A stretch of DNA of 64,000 bases, taken from the NCBI RefSeq assembly GCF_011045215.1, contig NZ_CP049201.1, one strand, 5' to 3'. Made by a program: the position numbers and the translations under genes. Shown here piece after piece: positions 39,573 through 57,240 of this stretch; positions within the stretch are counted from its first letter, which is position 1; every line of letters begins with the position of its first letter. The notes under the pieces are model-generated. The model had not been told where the DNA came from. It did not search any database and saw only the letters and a list, made by a program, of their open reading frames with translations. The stretch is from Escherichia coli. Its GTDB lineage: Bacteria; Pseudomonadota; Gammaproteobacteria; Enterobacterales; Enterobacteriaceae.

Positions 39573-40856
39573 TCAGGCTGCCTGGCTAATCCGCGCCAGC
39601 TGCTCGAAATAATCCGGAAATGTTTTGGCCGTACATTTGGGATCAAGAATCGTCACTGGTGTATCTGACAACGCCACCAGCGAAAAACACATCGCCATCC
39701 GGTGATCATTGTATGTCGCGATCTCGGCAAAGTTCAGTTTTTCCGGTGGAGTGATACGAATGTAATCGTGCCCCTCTTCTACTTCCGCACCGACTTTACG
39801 CAGTTCTGTTGCCATCGCAAACAGGCGATCGGTTTCTTTAACACGCCAGTTATAGATATTGCGCAGCGTGGTGGTGCCTTTTGCAAATAACGCCGCCGTG
39901 GCAATGGTCATCGCCGCATCAGGAATATGGTTCATATCCATATCAATAGCGTTCAGTTCACCACGCGTGCAGGAAATATAATCATCGCCCCAGCAAATGG
40001 TCGCGCCCATTTTTTCCAGCACATCAGCAAAGCGAATATCACCCTGCATACTGTTACGTCCAATACCGGTCACTTTTACAGTGCCGCCTTTGATTGCTGC
40101 TGCTGCCAGAAAGTAAGAAGCCGAAGATGCATCGCCTTCGACCAAATAAGTACCCGGAGACTGATAAGACTGCCCGCCTTTTACGACAAATTGTTGATAG
40201 TGCTGATTTTCAATTTCAACACCAAACGTCTTCATCAGATTGAGTGTGATGTCGATATAAGGTTTAGAAACCAGATCGCCTTTAATACGAATCACCGTAT
40301 CTTCCGGCGCAAGAGGCGCAGTCATTAACAGTGAGGTGAGGAATTGGCTGGAAACGGAGCCATCAACGTCAACGTTGCCGCCAGTAAAGCCGCCCTGTAA
40401 ACGCAACGGCGGATAATTTTCTTGTTCCAGGTAAGTGATCTTCGCCCCGCCCAGGCGCAGCGCATCCACCAGATGACCAATCGGGCGCTCTTTCATACGC
40501 GGCTCACCGGTCAGCACAATATCATTGCTACCCAGACAAAGAGCTGCCGCCAGCGGACGCATCGCCGTTCCGGCGTTACCGAGGAACAACTCCAGGGCAC
40601 CTTCTGCGTGTAATGGACCGCCGTTACCGATAATTTCGCAACGTGTACGATCGGCTGAAAGCGTATAGCTTACCCCTAACGCTGTTAATGCATTCAGCAT
40701 ATGGCGCACGTCATCGCTATCCAGCAGATTGGTTAATACTGTTTTGCCGTGTGCTAATGCCGCCAGCAATAAAGCGCGGTTAGAAACGCTCTTGGAACCG
40801 GGCAGATTAATAGTGCCATCGACACGAGCGATGGGTTGTAACGTCAGGGATTCCAT
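39573..40856 (-). CDS. aroA: 3-phosphoshikimate 1-carboxyvinyltransferase (EPSP synthase), 427 aa
   Basis: ORF track 427 aa; N-terminus [35 protein letters not shown]. Confidence 0.97.
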
Positions 40857-40879
40857 GAACTCAACTCTCTACAACAGAA

Positions 40880-40907
40880 ATAAAAACCCCACAGGCTGGC
40901 TGTGGGG
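40880..40907 (-). terminator. Intercistronic stem-loop/attenuator between serC and aroA
   Basis: ccccacag...ctgtgggg hairpin followed on minus strand by T-rich tract. Confidence 0.55.
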
Positions 40908-40926
40908 ATTAAGCAAAATTTCGGCA

Positions 40927-42015
40927 TTAACCGTGACGGCGTTCGAACTCAACCATGAAGTCTGTCAGCGCTTTAACGCCTTCCAGCGGCATGGCATTAT
41001 AAATAGACGCGCGCATTCCGCCGACCACACGGTGACCTTTCAGTGCATGAAGGCCTGCAGCAAAAGACTCTTCAAGGAACAATTTGTCAAGCGCACTGTC
41101 AGCCAACTGGAACGGCACGTTCATCCGCGAACGGTTAGCTTTCGCCACGTCATTGCGGTAGAAATCGCTGTTATCAATCACCCCATATAGCAGTTCTGCT
41201 TTTTGCTGATTGATTTTATCCATTTCAGCTACACCGCCGTTCGCTTTCAGCCATTTAAAGACCAGACCAGATAGATACCAGGCAAATGTCGGCGGCGTGT
41301 TAAACATGGAGCCGTTATCGTTGAGGATGGAATAATCCAGAATCGACGGACACGCGACATTCGCTTTGCCCAGCAAATCTTCACGGACGATGACGATTGT
41401 CAGGCCTGCCGGGCCGATATTTTTCTGCGCGCCAGCGTAAATTACACCATAACGGCTGACGTCAATCGGACGGGAAAGAATGGTTGAAGAGAAGTCGGCG
41501 GCGACCACCACATCTTTGCCGAAGTCTGGCGTTTCGTCGATGGCGATACCGTCGATGGTTTCATTCGGGCAGTAATGCATATAAGCAGCATTATCAGAGA
41601 GTTGCCATTCACGCATTGGCTTAACCGCGCGCAGACCATCAACAGTCACTTTGGCGTCAAAGACATTAGGCGTGCAGTATTTTTTCGCTTCTTTAATGGC
41701 ACTTGCCGCCCAGTAACCGGCATCAACATAATCTGCGGTGGTTTTATCACCGAGAATATTCAGCGGTACCGCAGCAAACTGACCGCGACCACCGCCATGG
41801 CAGAATAATACCTTGTAGTTGGAGGGGACATTAAGAAGATCGCGAAAATCCTTCTCGGCTTCCTCTGCAACCTGAATGAACTCTTTGCCACGGTGACTCA
41901 CTTCCATCACCGACGTACCAAGACCGTTCCAGTCGCGCAGTTCCTGTTGAGCCTGTTTAAGCACCTCTGCCGGTAGCATTGCCGGACCAGAACTAAAATT
42001 GAAGATTTGAGCCAT
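40927..42015 (-). CDS. serC: Phosphoserine aminotransferase, 362 aa
   Basis: ORF track 362 aa; N-terminus [15 protein letters not shown]. Confidence 0.97.
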
Positions 42016-42213
42016 TTCCCCTCACCACGTTGCGTTGCTATTAACCCGCGGTCAATCGATTGCGACCACAGGTAATACATTATTCCTGTGGCTATCGGTT
42101 TTATCATTCAGTGACACACATCGCAATGAGTAAAACCGTTGAGGGCAAAAATGTGGCTTGCATCACACAAAAGAATCTCTCGGATTATTAGCAAAAAGCC
42201 GATGTTTTTACTG

Positions 42214-42906
42214 TCAGGTCACCCGTTTTGCCCGACTTGCCTTCGTCCATTCTGGGTTTGCACAGCGCGGACATAATTGTTTTTCCCCCGCTTTCATATG
42301 AATGATTTCACTACAACGAATACAGGCATAGTCCGCCGACTCCGGCACCACTTTGTAACGCTGCGTACAATCACTGGGTAAAATAAGTAAACCCGATTTC
42401 ACCTTGTCATCTTCAAAGAAATAGACACTGATTTGCCCGTTGGTTTCGAGAATCGCCAGACGTACCTGCCCCAGCTGCTCCACGCCACGCAATCGTAGCT
42501 CCATAAAGAACTCAAATTCCGTCATGTTGGAGTTATTGAGTTTCGACCAGGCCAGCTCGCCATCTTCAATAATGACAACTGGCTTGCCTTCCAGAAGATC
42601 TTCCAGTTTTTCACTGTGCGCCATCAACCACATTACCAGGCGGTATAACAACGCCAGAGTAATAAAGACGATAAGTACCGGGACCATCGGCACATCATCA
42701 TAAAACGCCACATCTCCCGCCGCTGATCCCAGCGTCAGAATGATTAAAACTTCAAACAGCGACATCTGCCGCACACCGCGTCTTCCGGTCATTTTGAGGA
42801 ACAAAAAGACCAGTACAAAGGTATAAAGACTACGTAGTGCAACTTCGCCAAGGAAATCAAAAGGCACTTTATCAAATGCCATACGGTGGAGATCGAACGC
42901 CTTCAT
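42214..42906 (-). CDS. ycaP: Inner-membrane protein YcaP (DUF421), 230 aa
   Basis: ORF track 230 aa; two N-terminal TM segments. Confidence 0.85.
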   Translation of the reverse strand: MKAFDLHRMAFDKVPFDFLGEVALRSLYTFVLVFLFLKMTGRRGVRQMSLFEVLIILTLGSAAGDVAFYDDVPMVPVLIVFITLALLYRLVMWLMAHSEKLEDLLEGKPVVIIEDGELAWSKLNNSNMTEFEFFMELRLRGVEQLGQVRLAILETNGQISVYFFEDDKVKSGLLILPSDCTQRYKVVPESADYACIRCSEIIHMKAGEKQLCPRCANPEWTKASRAKRVT

Positions 42907-43035
42907 TTTTATGCTCTTAACGTGGTTTATCCGCTAAAAGCATAGTCAACAGTTCATCGGCATGGCGGCGGTGATAGCGCCTTTGAGATAAAACCCGTAT
43001 TATTGCGCGCTTTCCGTACGACTAAAGTGATTTTC

Positions 43036-44796
43036 ATGACGCAAACATTTATCCCCGGCAAAGATGCCGCACTGGAAGATTCCATCGCTCGCTTCCAGCA
43101 AAAACTTTCAGACCTCGGCTTTCAGATTGAAGAGGCCTCCTGGCTGAATCCCGTGCCTAACGTCTGGTCTGTACATATTCGCGACAAAGAGTGCGCACTG
43201 TGTTTTACCAACGGTAAAGGCGCAACCAAGAAAGCGGCGCTGGCTTCTGCACTCGGTGAATATTTCGAGCGTCTCTCAACCAACTACTTTTTTGCTGATT
43301 TCTGGCTGGGCGAAACCATCGCCAACGGTCCATTTGTGCATTATCCCAACGAAAAATGGTTCCCACTGACCGAAAATGACGATGTGCCAGAAGGGCTGCT
43401 CGATGAACGTCTGCGCGCATTTTACGATCCGGAGAATGAATTGACCGGCAGTATGCTGATTGACCTACAATCCGGTAACGAAGATCGTGGTATTTGCGGT
43501 CTGCCGTTTACACGTCAGTCTGATAATCAGACCGTTTATATTCCGATGAATATCATTGGTAACTTGTACGTTTCTAACGGTATGTCTGCTGGCAATACCC
43601 GTAACGAAGCACGCGTTCAGGGGTTGTCCGAAGTTTTCGAACGCTACGTGAAAAACCGCATTATTGCTGAAAGCATCAGCTTGCCGGAAATCCCGGCAGA
43701 CGTGCTGGCACGTTATCCAGCAGTAGTTGAAGCGATCGAAACACTGGAAGCAGAAGGTTTCCCGATCTTCGCATATGATGGTTCCCTTGGCGGCCAGTAT
43801 CCGGTGATTTGCGTGGTACTGTTTAATCCTGCTAACGGCACCTGCTTTGCCTCTTTCGGTGCGCATCCTGATTTTGGCGTAGCACTGGAACGTACCGTGA
43901 CCGAGCTGCTGCAAGGTCGTGGCCTGAAAGATTTGGATGTGTTTACTCCGCCAACCTTCGATGATGAAGAAGTCGCTGAACATACCAACCTCGAAACGCA
44001 CTTTATCGATTCCAGCGGTTTAATCTCCTGGGACCTGTTCAAGCAGGATGCCGATTATCCGTTTGTGGACTGGAATTTCTCCGGCACCACGGGAGAAGAG
44101 TTTGCTACGCTGATGGCTATCTTCAACAAAGAAGATAAAGAAGTTTATATTGCCGATTACGAGCATCTGGGCGTTTATGCTTGCCGTATTATCGTGCCTG
44201 GCATGTCCGATATTTATCCGGCTGAAGATCTGTGGCTCGCGAATAACAGTATGGGCAGCCATTTACGTGAAACGATTCTTTCGCTACCAGGCAGCGAGTG
44301 GGAAAAAGAAGATTACCTGAACCTCATCGAGCAACTGGATGAAGAAGGTTTTGATGACTTTACCCGCGTGCGTGAGCTGTTGGGTCTGGCGACCGGGTCG
44401 GATAACGGTTGGTACACCCTGCGTATCGGTGAATTAAAAGCCATGCTGGCGCTGGCTGGTGGCGATCTGGAACAGGCTCTGGTCTGGACCGAATGGACGA
44501 TGGAGTTTAACTCATCGGTATTCAGCCCGGAACGCGCCAACTATTATCGCTGCCTGCAAACGTTGTTATTACTGGCACAGGAAGAAGATCGCCAGCCGCT
44601 GCAATATCTGAATGCGTTTGTTCGCATGTACGGCGCAGATGCCGTGGAAGCCGCCAGTGCGGCAATGAGCGGCGAAGCGGCGTTTTATGGCTTGCAACCA
44701 GTAGATAGCGATCTGCACGCGTTTGCTGCACATCAGTCACTGTTGAAGGCCTACGAAAAGCTGCAGCGCGCCAAAGCAGCATTCTGGGCAAAATAA
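43036..44796 (+). CDS. ycaO: YcaO-domain protein (ATP-dependent amide-activating family), 586 aa
   Basis: ORF track frame 43003..44796; start at MTQTFIPGKD; length matches recalled YcaO. Confidence 0.92.
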   Translation: MTQTFIPGKDAALEDSIARFQQKLSDLGFQIEEASWLNPVPNVWSVHIRDKECALCFTNGKGATKKAALASALGEYFERLSTNYFFADFWLGETIANGPFVHYPNEKWFPLTENDDVPEGLLDERLRAFYDPENELTGSMLIDLQSGNEDRGICGLPFTRQSDNQTVYIPMNIIGNLYVSNGMSAGNTRNEARVQGLSEVFERYVKNRIIAESISLPEIPADVLARYPAVVEAIETLEAEGFPIFAYDGSLGGQYPVICVVLFNPANGTCFASFGAHPDFGVALERTVTELLQGRGLKDLDVFTPPTFDDEEVAEHTNLETHFIDSSGLISWDLFKQDADYPFVDWNFSGTTGEEFATLMAIFNKEDKEVYIADYEHLGVYACRIIVPGMSDIYPAEDLWLANNSMGSHLRETILSLPGSEWEKEDYLNLIEQLDEEGFDDFTRVRELLGLATGSDNGWYTLRIGELKAMLALAGGDLEQALVWTEWTMEFNSSVFSPERANYYRCLQTLLLLAQEEDRQPLQYLNAFVRMYGADAVEAASAAMSGEAAFYGLQPVDSDLHAFAAHQSLLKAYEKLQRAKAAFWAK

Positions 44797-45127
44797 AATC
44801 AAATAGCCTACGCAATGTAGGCTTAATGATTCGTCTGAGTTATATTACGGGGCGTTTTTTTAATGCCCCGCTTTACATATATTTGCATTAATAAAATAAT
44901 TGTAATTATAAGGTTAAATATCGGTAATTTGTATTTAATAAATACGATCGATATTGTTACTTTATTCGCCTGGTGCTCCCTTTTAATTAACTGTTTTAGC
45001 GGAGGATGCGGAAAAAATTCAACTCATTTGTTAATTTTTAAAATTTATTTTTATTTGGATAATCAAATATTTACTCCGTATTTGCATAAAAACCATGCGA
45101 GTTACGGGCCTATAAGCCAGGCGAGAT

Positions 45128-45141
45128 ATGATCTATATCAA
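45128..45141. promoter_or_regulatory. FNR-type site (aTGAT-N4-ATCAA) in focA-pflB promoter region
   Basis: atgatctatatcaa palindrome read directly, followed by tataat at 45151-45156. Confidence 0.6.
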
Positions 45142-45201
45142 TTTCTCATCTATAATGCTTTGTTAGTATCTCGTCGCCGACTTAATAAAGAGAGAGTTAG
45201 T

Positions 45202-46059
45202 GTGAAAGCTGACAACCCTTTTGATCTTTTACTTCCTGCTGCAATGGCCAAAGTGGCCGAAGAGGCGGGTGTCTATAAAGCAACGAAACATCCGCTTAAG
45301 ACTTTCTATCTGGCGATTACCGCCGGTGTTTTCATCTCAATCGCATTCGTCTTCTATATCACAGCAACCACTGGCACAGGCACAATGCCCTTCGGCATGG
45401 CAAAACTGGTTGGCGGCATTTGTTTCTCTCTGGGGCTGATTCTTTGTGTTGTCTGCGGAGCCGATCTCTTTACTTCCACAGTGTTGATTGTTGTTGCTAA
45501 GGCGAGTGGGCGCATCACCTGGGGTCAGTTGGCTAAAAACTGGCTAAATGTCTATTTTGGCAACCTGGTCGGCGCACTGCTGTTTGTACTTTTAATGTGG
45601 CTTTCCGGCGAGTATATGACCGCAAATGGTCAATGGGGACTAAACGTCCTACAAACCGCCGACCACAAAGTGCACCATACTTTTATTGAGGCCGTCTGCC
45701 TTGGTATCCTGGCAAACCTGATGGTATGTCTGGCAGTATGGATGAGTTATTCTGGCCGCAGCCTGATGGACAAAGCGTTTATCATGGTGCTGCCGGTCGC
45801 GATGTTTGTTGCCAGCGGTTTTGAGCACAGTATCGCAAACATGTTTATGATCCCGATGGGTATTGTAATCCGCGACTTCGCATCTCCGGAATTCTGGACC
45901 GCTGTCGGTTCTGCACCGGAAAATTTTTCTCACCTGACCGTGATGAACTTCATCACTGATAACCTGATTCCGGTTACGATCGGTAATATTATCGGCGGTG
46001 GTTTGTTGGTTGGGTTGACATACTGGGTCATTTACCTGCGTGAAAACGATCACCATTAA
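45202..46059 (+). CDS. focA: Formate channel FocA, 285 aa, GTG start
   Basis: In-frame GTG at 45202 preceded by AAAGAGAGAG; N-terminus (V/M)KADNPFDLLLPAAMAKVAEEAG; the longer track ORF 44863..46059 runs through the AT-rich promoter region. Confidence 0.9.
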   Translation: MKADNPFDLLLPAAMAKVAEEAGVYKATKHPLKTFYLAITAGVFISIAFVFYITATTGTGTMPFGMAKLVGGICFSLGLILCVVCGADLFTSTVLIVVAKASGRITWGQLAKNWLNVYFGNLVGALLFVLLMWLSGEYMTANGQWGLNVLQTADHKVHHTFIEAVCLGILANLMVCLAVWMSYSGRSLMDKAFIMVLPVAMFVASGFEHSIANMFMIPMGIVIRDFASPEFWTAVGSAPENFSHLTVMNFITDNLIPVTIGNIIGGGLLVGLTYWVIYLRENDHH

Positions 46060-46113
46060 TGGTTGTCGAAGTACGCAGTAAATAAAAAATCCACTTAAGA
46101 AGGTAGGTGTTAC

Positions 46114-48396
<2,283 letters not shown>

Positions 48397-48437
48397 TTAG
48401 ATTTGACTGAAATCGTACAGTAAAAAGCGTACAATAA

Positions 48438-48466
48438 AGGCTCCACGAAAGTGGGGCCTTTTTTAG
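48438..48466 (+). terminator. Rho-independent terminator after pflB
   Basis: aggctccacgaaagtggggcct hairpin followed by TTTTTT. Confidence 0.8.
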
Positions 48467-48587
48467 CACGTGAGCCTTTTTTGTCAGCTATCTATACTTT
48501 AAGGTGACTGCCAAAACAGACTCGACGTAGCCTTCGAGCTGCGCACCAACACGGCCTCAGATGGGCCACATCTGGAGAAACACCGCA

Positions 48588-49328
48588 ATGTCAGTTATTG
48601 GTCGCATTCACTCCTTTGAATCCTGTGGAACCGTAGACGGCCCAGGTATTCGCTTTATCACCTTTTTCCAGGGCTGCCTGATGCGCTGCCTGTATTGTCA
48701 TAACCGCGACACCTGGGACACGCATGGCGGTAAAGAAGTTACCGTTGAAGATTTGATGAAGGAAGTGGTGACCTATCGCCACTTTATGAACGCTTCCGGC
48801 GGCGGCGTTACCGCATCCGGCGGTGAAGCAATCCTGCAAGCTGAGTTTGTTCGTGACTGGTTCCGCGCCTGCAAAAAAGAAGGCATTCATACCTGTCTGG
48901 ACACCAACGGTTTTGTTCGTCGTTACGATCCGGTGATTGATGAACTGCTGGAAGTAACCGACCTGGTAATGCTCGATCTCAAACAGATGAACGACGAGAT
49001 CCACCAAAATCTGGTTGGAGTTTCCAACCACCGCACGCTGGAGTTCGCCAAATATCTGGCGAATAAAAATGTGAAGGTGTGGATCCGCTACGTTGTTGTC
49101 CCAGGCTGGTCTGACGATGACGATTCAGCGCATCGCCTCGGTGAATTTACCCGTGATATGGGTAACGTTGAGAAAATCGAACTTCTCCCCTACCACGAAC
49201 TGGGCAAACACAAATGGGTGGCGATGGGTGAAGAATACAAACTCGATGGTGTTAAACCACCGAAGAAAGAAACCATGGAACGCGTGAAAGGTATTCTTGA
49301 GCAGTACGGTCATAAGGTAATGTTCTAA
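48588..49328 (+). CDS. pflA: Pyruvate formate-lyase activating enzyme (radical SAM), 246 aa
   Basis: ORF track frame 48561..49328; start [20 protein letters not shown]; radical-SAM CxxxCxxC motif CLMRCLYC. Confidence 0.96.
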
Positions 49329-49372: not shown

Positions 49373-49537
49373 TCCGCGCTGCATAAATAATTCAGAGCTC
49401 TATTTCTAACGCCCTTACAGCACAGCTTCCAAATGTATTACCCAAACCGCCAGTATATGTCCTGCGGCTTGCGCGCATTTCTCGATTATGTAAAAACGGG
49501 TCAGATCTGCCAGAGTCAGCGTCACCGACCACAATAA

Positions 49538-54795: not shown

Positions 54796-57240
54796 TTACA
54801 CCTTTTCAACCTGAACAAGGTTTGTATGTGACGGATTCCCCTTAGCGAGAGGAGACGGACGTTGAGTGGTCAGTACGTTAATACAACCACCCTTATCGAC
54901 ACGTTTTGCATCCGGGTCATACCAGGCACCTTCACCCAGTGCGACCACACCCGGCATCATTCGTGGCGTCACTTTCGCCTCAATATGAACCTCACCACGA
55001 TCGTTAAAGATCCTGACTTTATCGCCGTTGTGGATACCGCGTTTTTGGGCATCAAGCGGGTTGATCCACATTTCCTGACGGCAAGCCGCTTTCAGCACAT
55101 CAACGTTGCCGTAAGTTGAGTGAACGCGAGATTTATAGTGGAAACCTGTAAGCTGCAGCGGATACTGTTTGTTCAGCGGATCCTGATAACTTTCAAAGCC
55201 CGGCGTGTAGATCGGCAGTGGATCGATCACATCGCCTTCTGGCAATTCCCAGGTAGCGGCAATGTCAGCCAGCGCCTGCGAATAAATCTCAATTTTGCCC
55301 GATGGCGTAGTCAGTGGGTTTGCCTGCGGATCTTCACGGAAGGCTTTATAAGCAACGTGATGCCCTTGTGGGTCGCGCTTTTTAAAGATCCCCTGCTTGC
55401 GGAACTCTTCAAACGTTGGCAGTTCAGGAATCGCTTCCCGCGACTGGGCATACAGATGCCGCATCCACTCTTCCTGGGTACGGCCTTCAGTAAACTGTTG
55501 CTCAACGCCAAGACGTTTTGCCAGTTCGCTGGTCATTTCATAGATGGTCTTACATTCAAAGCGCGGTTTAATCACCTGATCGTTGAAAATCACGTAAGAC
55601 ATATTCCCGCAGGATGCATCCAGTGCAAAGTCCATCTGTTCGGAAGCGGTACAGTCAGGCAGCAGGATGTCAGCATATTTCGCCGATGAAGTCATGTGGC
55701 AGTCGATAACCACAATCAGCTCGCACTTCTTATCATCCTGGAGGATTTCATGGGTACGGTTGATTTCAGAATGCTGGTTAATCAGGCAGTTACCGGCATA
55801 GTTCCAGATCATTTTGATCGGCACATCCAGCTTATCTTTCCCGCGCACACCATCACGCAGCGCCGTCATTTCCGGGCCACGTTCAATGGCATCGGTCCAC
55901 ATAAACATAGAAATGCTGGTCTGGATCGGGTTTTCCAGAGTCGGCATACGGACAAACGGTAAGCTGTATGAACCTTCACGCGCGCCGCTGTTCCCTCCAT
56001 TAATACCAACGTTACCGGTCAGAATCGCCAGCATCGAGATAGCACGGGTTGCGATTTCACCGTTAGCGTGACGCTGCGGGCCCCATCCCTGGCTGATAAA
56101 CGCCGGTTTGGTACTGCCGATTTCACGAGCCAGTTTGATGATTTTGTCTGCCGGAACACCGGTGATTTGCGAGGCCCATTCCGGTGTTTTAGCCACGCCA
56201 TCTGGCCCTTCACCCAGAATATAAGCTTTATAGTGGCCATTTTTCGGCGCACTGGCTGGCAGGGTTTTCTCGTCATAGCCAACGCAATATTTATCGAGGA
56301 ATGCCTGATCCACCAGGTTTTCGGTGATCATGACATACGCCAGACCGTTAACCAGTGCGGCATCTGTTCCTGGACGAATAGGGATCCACTCATCTTCGCG
56401 CCCGGCACCGGTGTCGGTATAGCGCGGATCGATGATGATCATGCGGGCATTAGATTTCTGACGCGCCTGTTCAAGATAGTAAGTCACCCCACCGCCACTC
56501 ATTCGCGTTTCGCCAGGGTTATTACCAAACAGCACTACCAGCTTACTGTTTTCGATATCCGACGGGCTGTTGCCATCTGCCCAGCCGCCCTAGGTATAGT
56601 TCAGACCTTCCGCAATTTGCGCGGAAGAGTAGTCACCGTAATGGTTCAGATAACCGCCGCAGCAGTTCATCAGCCGCGCGACCAGGGTATTTCCCGGCGG
56701 CCAGGAGCGGGTCATGGTGCCACCCAGCGTACCGGTGCCATAGTTAAGATAGATGGATTCGTTGCCGTACTCTTTGATCAGGCGCTGCATATTGGTCGCG
56801 ATGATGTCGTAGGCTTCTTCCCAGCTAATGCGCTCGAATTTGCCTTCACCGCGCGCCCCGACTCGTTTCATCGGATATTTCAGGCGGTCCGGATTATAGA
56901 CACGGCGACGCATGGAACGCCCACGCAAACAGGCGCGAACCTGGTGCAGGCCGTCGTAATTGTCATCGCCGGTATTGTCCGTTTCGACATATTTGATTTC
57001 ACCGTCCACGACGTGCATACGTAGCGGGCAGCGACTACCACAGTTAACTGTACAGGCGCTCCAGATAACCTTTTCGTCTGATTTTGTTGGAATGGCGCTA
57101 TCGACAGCGTGCGCAATCCGACTAAAAGGTAATGTTAATGCGCTGCTGGCCATTGCCAGGCCGCCGATCGCTGTCGTTTTTACCAAACCACGGCGACTCA
57201 CCTCAGCAGCCAATACCGCATCAGGGATTTTCGTTTTCAT
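54796..57240 (-). pseudogene. dmsA: DMSO reductase catalytic subunit dmsA interrupted by an in-frame TAG (amber) at 56590-56592
   Basis: Two same-frame ORFs (56590..57240, 216 aa with Tat signal SRRGLVKTTAIGGLAMA; 54796..56535, 579 aa) are separated only by a TAG; hand translation gives ...AEGLNYT*GGWADGNSPSDIENSKLVVLFGNNPGE, which is continuous DmsA sequence with a stop where Tyr is expected. Confidence 0.75.

Follow-up and report, generated by a model that had tools for sequence, protein, structure and literature searches.

The ycaO gene and its product

The gene considered here, ycaO, occupies positions 43036 to 44796 on the plus strand of the window, by which we mean the whole 64-kb stretch of Escherichia coli DNA that was analyzed. 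It runs from an ATG at 43036 to a TAA at 44794 to 44796 and encodes a protein of 586 amino acids that is strongly acidic, with a computed pI of 4.39 (91 aspartate and glutamate residues versus 42 lysine and arginine residues). Residues 59 to 391 (positions 43210 to 44208, plus strand) form the YcaO ATP/Mg2+-binding catalytic domain (Pfam PF02624; E = 6.4e-75), and the same region matches the NCBIfam model TIGR00702 with 570.9 bits. Residues 407 to 581 (positions 44254 to 44778, plus strand) form the TPR-like C-terminal domain YcaO_C (Pfam PF18381; E = 2.5e-65), which is a dimerization domain and may add to the binding of uL16 (PMC13063428). The codon for the ATP-binding residue Glu202 lies at positions 43639 to 43641 on the plus strand; the residue is present, and E202 and the residues surrounding it in the ATP site are the same as those in the structure PDB 4Q84. 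The protein matches the NCBIfam equivalog NF040716 over residues 4 to 577 with a score of 915 bits (cutoff, 700), and its alignment to the E. coli YcaO structures 4Q84, 4Q85, and 4Q86 spans the full length. The open reading frame, the Pfam domains, the NF040716 match, and the structural alignment agree exactly with the coordinates and the ycaO identity proposed in the first-pass annotation.

Comparison with E. coli K-12 showed that 51 of the 1,761 nucleotides of ycaO differ and that 49 of these differences are synonymous, such that 584 of 586 residues are identical and the only amino acid changes relative to K-12 are D124E and E353G. That 51 nucleotide changes should yield only two amino acid changes points to strong purifying selection on ycaO. 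A protein of identical sequence has already been recorded as E. coli YcaO, and the segment from 42000 to 46000, across which serC, ycaP, ycaO, and focA are annotated, was matched in 5,425 of 5,426 complete E. coli genomes, with the highest identity (99.7%) to O157-like strains. Judged by these comparisons, the gene is the intact, ordinary, and already known core ycaO of E. coli. The K-12 protein (UniProt P75838) shares with it the domains, the ATP-site residues, the acidic pI, the genome position, and the neighbors; unlike K-12, the O157-like background of the window lacks ycaN-ycaK downstream of pflA.

Transcriptional organization of the ycaO region

As the first-pass annotation had described from the sequence, and as Pfam and the genome annotation bear out, ycaO is flanked by the divergent ycaP on one side and by focA-pflB on the other. 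ycaP (positions 42214 to 42906, minus strand) encodes a membrane protein of the DUF421/YetF type (Pfam) and is separated from ycaO by a spacer of 129 bp; we regard it as context and not as a partner. focA (positions 45202 to 46059) begins 405 bp past the ycaO stop codon, and pflB and pflA lie beyond it.

The spacer between ycaP and ycaO contains a conserved block at approximately 42985 to 43030, which holds a -10-like hexamer and, just before the ATG, the Shine-Dalgarno-like sequence AAGTGA. In an alignment of 81 Enterobacterales sequences, the motif AAAAcCCGTAT[T/C/G]AT was conserved to at least 90% at most of its positions, and the rest of the spacer was variable. Based on this conservation, the hexamer TATTAT at positions 42998 to 43003 (plus strand) is a candidate -10 element of a ycaO-specific promoter, and the conserved block can be read as the gene's own putative promoter. 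Past the stop codon lie two hairpins. The first, AGCCTAC-GCAAT-GTAGGCT, is found at positions 44805 to 44823 (no strand assigned), and the second, a GC-rich 9-bp hairpin at 44848 to 44870, is followed by a U-rich tract that extends to 44884 on the plus strand. The RNA fold predicted for positions 44790 to 44890 has a free energy of -31 kcal/mol (z = -4.41), and none of 200 shuffled sequences was as stable. The second hairpin and its U-rich tract (44848 to 44884) are thus a candidate intrinsic terminator for ycaO.

A sigma-70 promoter for focA-pflB, which is of interest here only as context, lies at positions 44872 to 44900 on the plus strand (TTTACA-17-AATAAT; 10 of 12 positions in a consensus scan). 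The same TTTACA/AATAAT pair has been assigned by genomic SELEX to a constitutive RpoD promoter in the focA/ycaO spacer that serves focA-pflB (Shimada et al.; PMC3946193). This promoter comes directly after the candidate ycaO terminator and is where the next transcription unit begins. In line with this, focA-pfl is transcribed independently according to Sawers 2005, as cited by Watson et al. (PMC7550191). The candidate terminator, the separate focA-pflB promoter, and the reported independent transcription of focA-pfl together make the view that ycaO is monocistronic well supported, its own promoter and terminator being predicted; the earlier description of the gene as monocistronic therefore appears to be correct. 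Transcription of ycaO alone would begin from the conserved -10 element approximately 35 nucleotides upstream of the gene and end at the hairpin terminator past its stop codon.

Conservation of ycaO and its neighbors

We compared the locus with the best 80 loci from a search with a six-sequence alignment, all of which come from Enterobacterales and which represent 80 species. Across these best 80 loci the order aroA-serC-(ycaP)-ycaO-focA-pflB-pflA is kept, with ycaP adjoining ycaO in just 33 of the 80. The ycaO-focA(-pflB-pflA) order is found in 75 of the 80, and most of the other five end short of focA. Over the same loci the median identity is 84.9% for YcaO, 84.3% for aroA, and 81.1% for serC. 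This conservation of YcaO at housekeeping level fits an enzyme that tracks an invariant housekeeping substrate. Seven contexts outside the Enterobacterales, including those of Pasteurellaceae and of the OsmC-fused form described below, had neighbors common neither to each other nor to E. coli, and TfuA, ThiS/MoaD, E1, and RRE genes were found in none of these seven.

The retained position of ycaO next to focA, together with the ycaO-focA linkage in Gammaproteobacteria noted by Watson et al. (PMC7550191), could be taken to mean that ycaO is tied functionally to anaerobic formate metabolism through the adjoining focA-pflB-pflA genes. We consider such a tie very unlikely. The ribosomes in which the thioamide discussed below was seen were derived from aerobic cultures (PMC7550191), focA-pfl is transcribed independently, and ycaO and focA-pflB have separate predicted promoters and terminators. 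Furthermore, the linkage to focA-pfl is missing in all seven of the non-enterobacterial contexts examined.

Search for partner genes and a precursor peptide

RiPP clusters are the setting in which the YcaO superfamily is most familiar. The first-pass annotation had remarked that neither a short precursor-like ORF nor a partner gene was visible within 2 kb of ycaO, and had suggested an HMM search of the flanking 2 kb for E1-like or Ocin-ThiF-like domains, together with a search for small ORFs. The search for partner domains was negative. Within the flanking 2 kb, Pfam detected no E1-like, TfuA, nitroreductase, or RRE domain in ycaP, serC, focA, or the start of pflB. Similarly, none of the 50 ORFs of at least 30 amino acids on both strands of approximately 2 kb matched a ThiF/E1, TfuA, nitroreductase, or RRE model in Pfam or NCBIfam, the best match among them having an E value of 0.0076, which is at chance level. 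A search of positions 40000 to 49000 against Rfam gave no match at E <= 1.

ORFs of 21 to 43 amino acids are present in both spacers when all ORFs of at least 20 amino acids are listed. Such ORFs, and the fact that the superfamily is known mostly from RiPP clusters, would be the grounds for viewing ycaO as a cryptic RiPP maturase (forming azolines or thioamides) whose precursor or partner had been overlooked. We analyzed spacer regions from the best 80 Enterobacterales loci and the window (67 regions to the left of ycaO and 73 to the right) and found no small ORF conserved as a coding unit. The largest cluster, and the only one that is widely shared, is that of a 43-amino-acid ORF at positions 42954 to 43085 on the minus strand (60 loci). 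We rejected it as noncoding because it covers, on the opposite strand, both the conserved 5' end of ycaO and the promoter block and because it ranges in length from 16 to 109 amino acids. A second ORF, AT-rich and 21 amino acids long, is shared by 34 loci; it was likewise rejected as noncoding, given its overlap with the focA promoter region and its spread of 15 to 40 amino acids.

The protein itself also differs from YcaO enzymes of known RiPP and methanogen systems. The azoline cyclodehydratases SagD, McbD, TruD, and LynD (TIGR03604) have in common with E. coli YcaO the ATP-binding fold and the O-phosphorylation of an amide. However, they need an E1-like/RRE partner, an adjacent precursor, and a side-chain nucleophile, none of which is found at E. 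coli ycaO, and no SagD-type neighbor (an E1-like/Ocin-ThiF-like protein, an FMN dehydrogenase, or a precursor) was detected among the flanking genes or the 50 small ORFs. YcaO scores 42.9 bits with the TOMM SagD model TIGR03604, far below the cutoff of 219.25. Apart from E. coli YcaO itself, the nearest relatives with solved structures are the thioamide-forming YcaO proteins of methanogens, MJ1094 (6PE3) and 6CI7. The methanogen enzymes (MJ1094; the Methanopyrus kandleri protein 6CI7; TIGR03266) also form a backbone thioamide in an ATP-dependent manner, and their target is a protein (Gly465 of McrA) and not a RiPP. Their similarity to E. coli YcaO is nevertheless very distant (E of about 1e-3). 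They lack the TPR-like C-terminal domain, can use short peptides as substrates, and in many cases occur together with TfuA, whereas E. coli YcaO requires folded uL16 and TfuA is absent from E. coli (PMC13063428). With the McrA-type model TIGR03266, for which the cutoff is 365, the score is 38.6 bits, and no tfuA gene adjoins ycaO.

A cryptic RiPP role is thus excluded as far as analysis of the sequence allows, and we regard it as extremely improbable: E1/ThiF, RRE, TfuA, and dehydrogenase domains are absent from the flanking genes and small ORFs, the neighbors are wholly different in different lineages, and the housekeeping-level conservation of the protein is unlike what is seen for RiPP enzymes. 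The first-pass annotation would have reinterpreted the gene as part of a conventional RiPP locus had an adjacent precursor or partner been detected; neither was found within 2 kb, and its picture of a standalone gene holds.

YcaO and thioamidation of uL16 Met82

A thioamide at Met82 of uL16 was seen in a 2.0-Å map of the E. coli ribosome, and YcaO was proposed to be responsible (Watson et al. 2020; PMC7550191). Subsequent work by Rice et al. (2026; PMC13063428), which combined knockout, coexpression, and in vitro experiments, showed that E. coli YcaO thioamidates folded uL16 at this residue. In a proteome-wide AlphaFold3 screen, uL16 was the sole partner placed in the YcaO active site, and the two proteins bind with a Kd of 9.8 nM (PMC13063428). 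The thioamide is absent once ycaO is deleted, and the mass shift of +15.977 Da on uL16 Met82 depends on ycaO, as established with the K-12 protein (PMC13063428). Coexpression with YcaO led to full modification of uL16, whereas ATP-site mutants did not bring this about, thioamidation by the E202A protein being incomplete (PMC13063428). Purified YcaO modifies full-length uL16 solely with Na2S, ATP, and Mg2+, the sulfide being a nonphysiological sulfur source, and an 11-mer and a 21-mer from the loop and GluC fragments are not substrates (PMC13063428). The activity is not confined to E. coli, because the YcaO orthologues of Klebsiella pneumoniae and Pseudomonas aeruginosa thioamidate their own uL16 proteins (PMC13063428). 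Deletion of ycaO alone leaves growth normal in LB and M9, but in minimal medium it suppresses the slow-growth phenotype of a roxA deletion mutant (PMC13063428). The statement in the first-pass annotation that the biochemistry of YcaO is incompletely defined is therefore outdated, uL16 thioamidation having been shown in vivo and in vitro; indeed, the puzzle of a standalone ycaO has been solved in the literature since March 2026 (PMC13063428).

The sequence and locus traits of the uL16-thioamidating group are present in the case examined here: the NF040716 match, both domains, E202, a pI of 4.39, a locus devoid of partner genes, and the rplP loop. An acidic pI (approximately 4.4) that complements basic uL16 is one of the criteria by which this group was defined (PMC13063428), and across 28 full-length YcaO relatives, the OsmC fusion included, we calculated pI values of 4.4 to 5.7. 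The substrate gene, rplP, sits outside the 64-kb window. The 75-mer that codes for its loop (uL16 R81-M82-G83) was found in 5,425 of 5,426 complete E. coli genomes and is 100% identical in strains of O157:H7, the serotype of some of the closest matches to the window.

The name under which the gene is usually listed offers a different reading, in which YcaO would act mainly as an accessory factor for the RimO-dependent beta-methylthiolation of Asp88 in uS12. The first-pass annotation had mentioned this link, and RefSeq, NCBIfam, and PDB do carry the name S12 methylthiotransferase accessory factor. The name goes with the observations of Strader et al., as described in PMC13063428, that YcaO copurified with tagged uS12 and that loss of ycaO lowered the modification from 99% to 84%. 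The link therefore stands as a database name, but the effect is no more than this partial drop. According to the same account, RimO suffices in vitro to modify an analogue of a uS12 peptide, and deletion of rimO abolishes the modification entirely. Moreover, the AlphaFold3 ipTM values are low for YcaO with uS12 (0.31) and with RimO (0.16), whereas ATP-dependent activity directly on uL16 has been reconstituted (PMC13063428). Over the stretch corresponding to the window, the annotation of the closest complete genome lists neither rimO nor rpsL. The S12/RimO link is weak and probably indirect, and we think it unlikely that it reflects the main role of YcaO.

Overall, we conclude that the product of this ycaO gene is the backbone thioamidase of uL16 Met82, made from what appears to be its own transcription unit and in need of no partner, and we put the probability of this reading at about 0.9. 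The experiments were carried out with the K-12 protein; the product of the allele in the window, which differs from it by two residues out of 586, is assigned the same function from that work. In this reading, YcaO is a homodimeric and very acidic enzyme that uses ATP to exchange the backbone carbonyl oxygen of Met82, a residue adjoining the peptidyl transferase center, for sulfur. If the enzyme follows the general mechanism of the YcaO family, sulfide or its equivalent would attack the Met82 carbonyl, ATP would phosphorylate the resulting oxyanion, and departure of the phosphate would leave the thioamide. YcaO probably acts on free uL16, ahead of ribosome assembly. Folded uL16 is recognized directly through electrostatic complementarity between the acidic enzyme and its basic substrate, and this explains why no neighboring partner is needed. 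A locus without partner genes is therefore to be expected, uL16 being a folded housekeeping protein that is encoded far away by rplP.

OsmC-fused orthologues and the supply of sulfur

The NCBIfam model TIGR03549 describes fusions of an OsmC domain to a YcaO domain, and E. coli YcaO aligns to its positions 148 to 722. The fusions have an additional N-terminal OsmC-like domain of approximately 147 amino acids that E. coli YcaO lacks. In one full-length fusion of 729 amino acids (P0123), the part corresponding to YcaO and YcaO_C is 53 to 54% identical to E. coli YcaO and scores 866.6 bits with NF040716, above the cutoff. Fragments of such fusions were found in Pseudomonas (including P. aeruginosa), Acinetobacter, Halomonas, Marinobacter, Alcanivorax, and Pseudoalteromonas, and also in Massilia, Rhodocyclaceae, Bdellovibrionota, and others. 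The P. aeruginosa fragment starts with MEVKVNFL and the primer used to clone P. aeruginosa YcaO encodes MVEVKVNFL (PMC13063428 supplement), a match which indicates that the validated P. aeruginosa enzyme (Q9I2H8) is an OsmC fusion. OsmC is not mentioned in the main text of PMC13063428.

Two cysteines of the fused domain, equivalent to the catalytic pair of OsmC, are present in 120 and 118, respectively, of 121 fusion sequences. The fused domain falls outside the OsmC and Ohr peroxiredoxin subfamilies, the nearest assignment, which is below threshold, being "OsmC-related (seleno)protein". The fusion suggests that the OsmC-like domain may act in connection with thioamidation, either as a cysteine-based sulfur relay or in a protective role. 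If so, the domain could be a persulfide carrier or a peroxidase that guards the sulfide or the thioamide, and E. coli might supply the function in trans, through a SufE-like persulfide carrier or a YhfA-like protein, or might use free sulfide. In view of the fusion and its conserved cysteines, a cysteine-based relay can be put forward as the physiological sulfur supply to YcaO, albeit as a speculative idea against which the odds are considerable.

E. coli YcaO evidently manages without an OsmC-like domain. Two candidates for an equivalent of that domain in E. coli were considered and rejected. For E. coli OsmC acting in trans, BLASTP revealed no similarity and the reported AlphaFold3 ipTM is 0.15 (PMC13063428 supplement); for YhfA, the only match covered 17 residues (E = 0.011). 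The ipTM values reported for SufE, SufA, and NrdH with YcaO, 0.61 to 0.65, are weak (PMC13063428 supplement). A value of 0.85 for SufE in a rescan with the YcaO dimer is treated as nonspecific, because the YcaO-YcaO interface itself can raise the score of such a rescan, and it serves as a lead only.

Conclusions

The practical value of this analysis lies in a correction of annotation, from S12 methylthiotransferase accessory factor to uL16 Met82 backbone thioamidase. More generally, it means that a YcaO gene without partners can encode a protein-modifying housekeeping enzyme and need not be viewed as a degenerate RiPP cluster.

The ycaO neighborhood

Among the 80 Enterobacterales species loci compared, ycaP (42214-42906), which is divergent from ycaO, adjoins it in only 33, and its median identity of 77% is the lowest among the genes of the block; rather than being a fixed neighbor, ycaP is an insertion that comes and goes in the serC-ycaO gap. 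Upstream of ycaO itself (43036-44796, plus strand) lies a block at 42985-43030 that reads AAAAcCCGTAT[T/C/G]AT...AAGTGA and is very strongly conserved among 81 Enterobacterales sequences. Because this conservation exceeds what a plain -10 element would need, the block may, judging from the sequence, also contain a regulator binding site.

On the other side of ycaO, the region upstream of focA carries, at 45128-45157, an FNR-like half-site pair (aTGATctatATCAA) followed by TATAAT, both read from the sequence by eye, and we take these elements to resemble the FNR-dependent focA-pfl promoter P6. The adjoining pflB gene (46114-48396) is overlapped along nearly its entire length by an antisense ORF of 750 aa on the minus strand (46135-48387, TTG start); the codon usage of pflB probably explains this ORF. 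Further downstream, between pflA and ycaM, about 40 bp (49385-49424) take the place of approximately 1.5 kb found in K-12; the missing K-12 segment (948773-950283) spans ycaK and most of ycaN, and the sole annotation at this site in the closest complete genome is a 111-bp gene fragment. An in-frame TAG (56590-56592) was also observed at codon 217 of dmsA (54796-57240, minus strand), where the window translates as LNYT*GGWADG, and it cuts the gene into ORFs of 216 and 579 aa. Unlike the window copy, dmsA is annotated as intact in the closest complete genome, and the TAG is either a strain-specific nonsense mutation, making dmsA a pseudogene, or a sequencing error.

OsmC-fused YcaO orthologues

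Some orthologues of E. coli YcaO have a fused N-terminal OsmC-like domain carrying two conserved cysteines. They are represented here by P0123, a full-length fusion of 729 aa encoded at L003 8001-10190, and by the fragments P0292-P0411. The role of the OsmC-like domain is not discussed by Rice et al. (2026; PMC13063428). Such OsmC-like/YcaO fusions are widespread across the Pseudomonadota and Bdellovibrionota, and the Pseudomonas aeruginosa enzyme validated for uL16 thioamidation is one of them.
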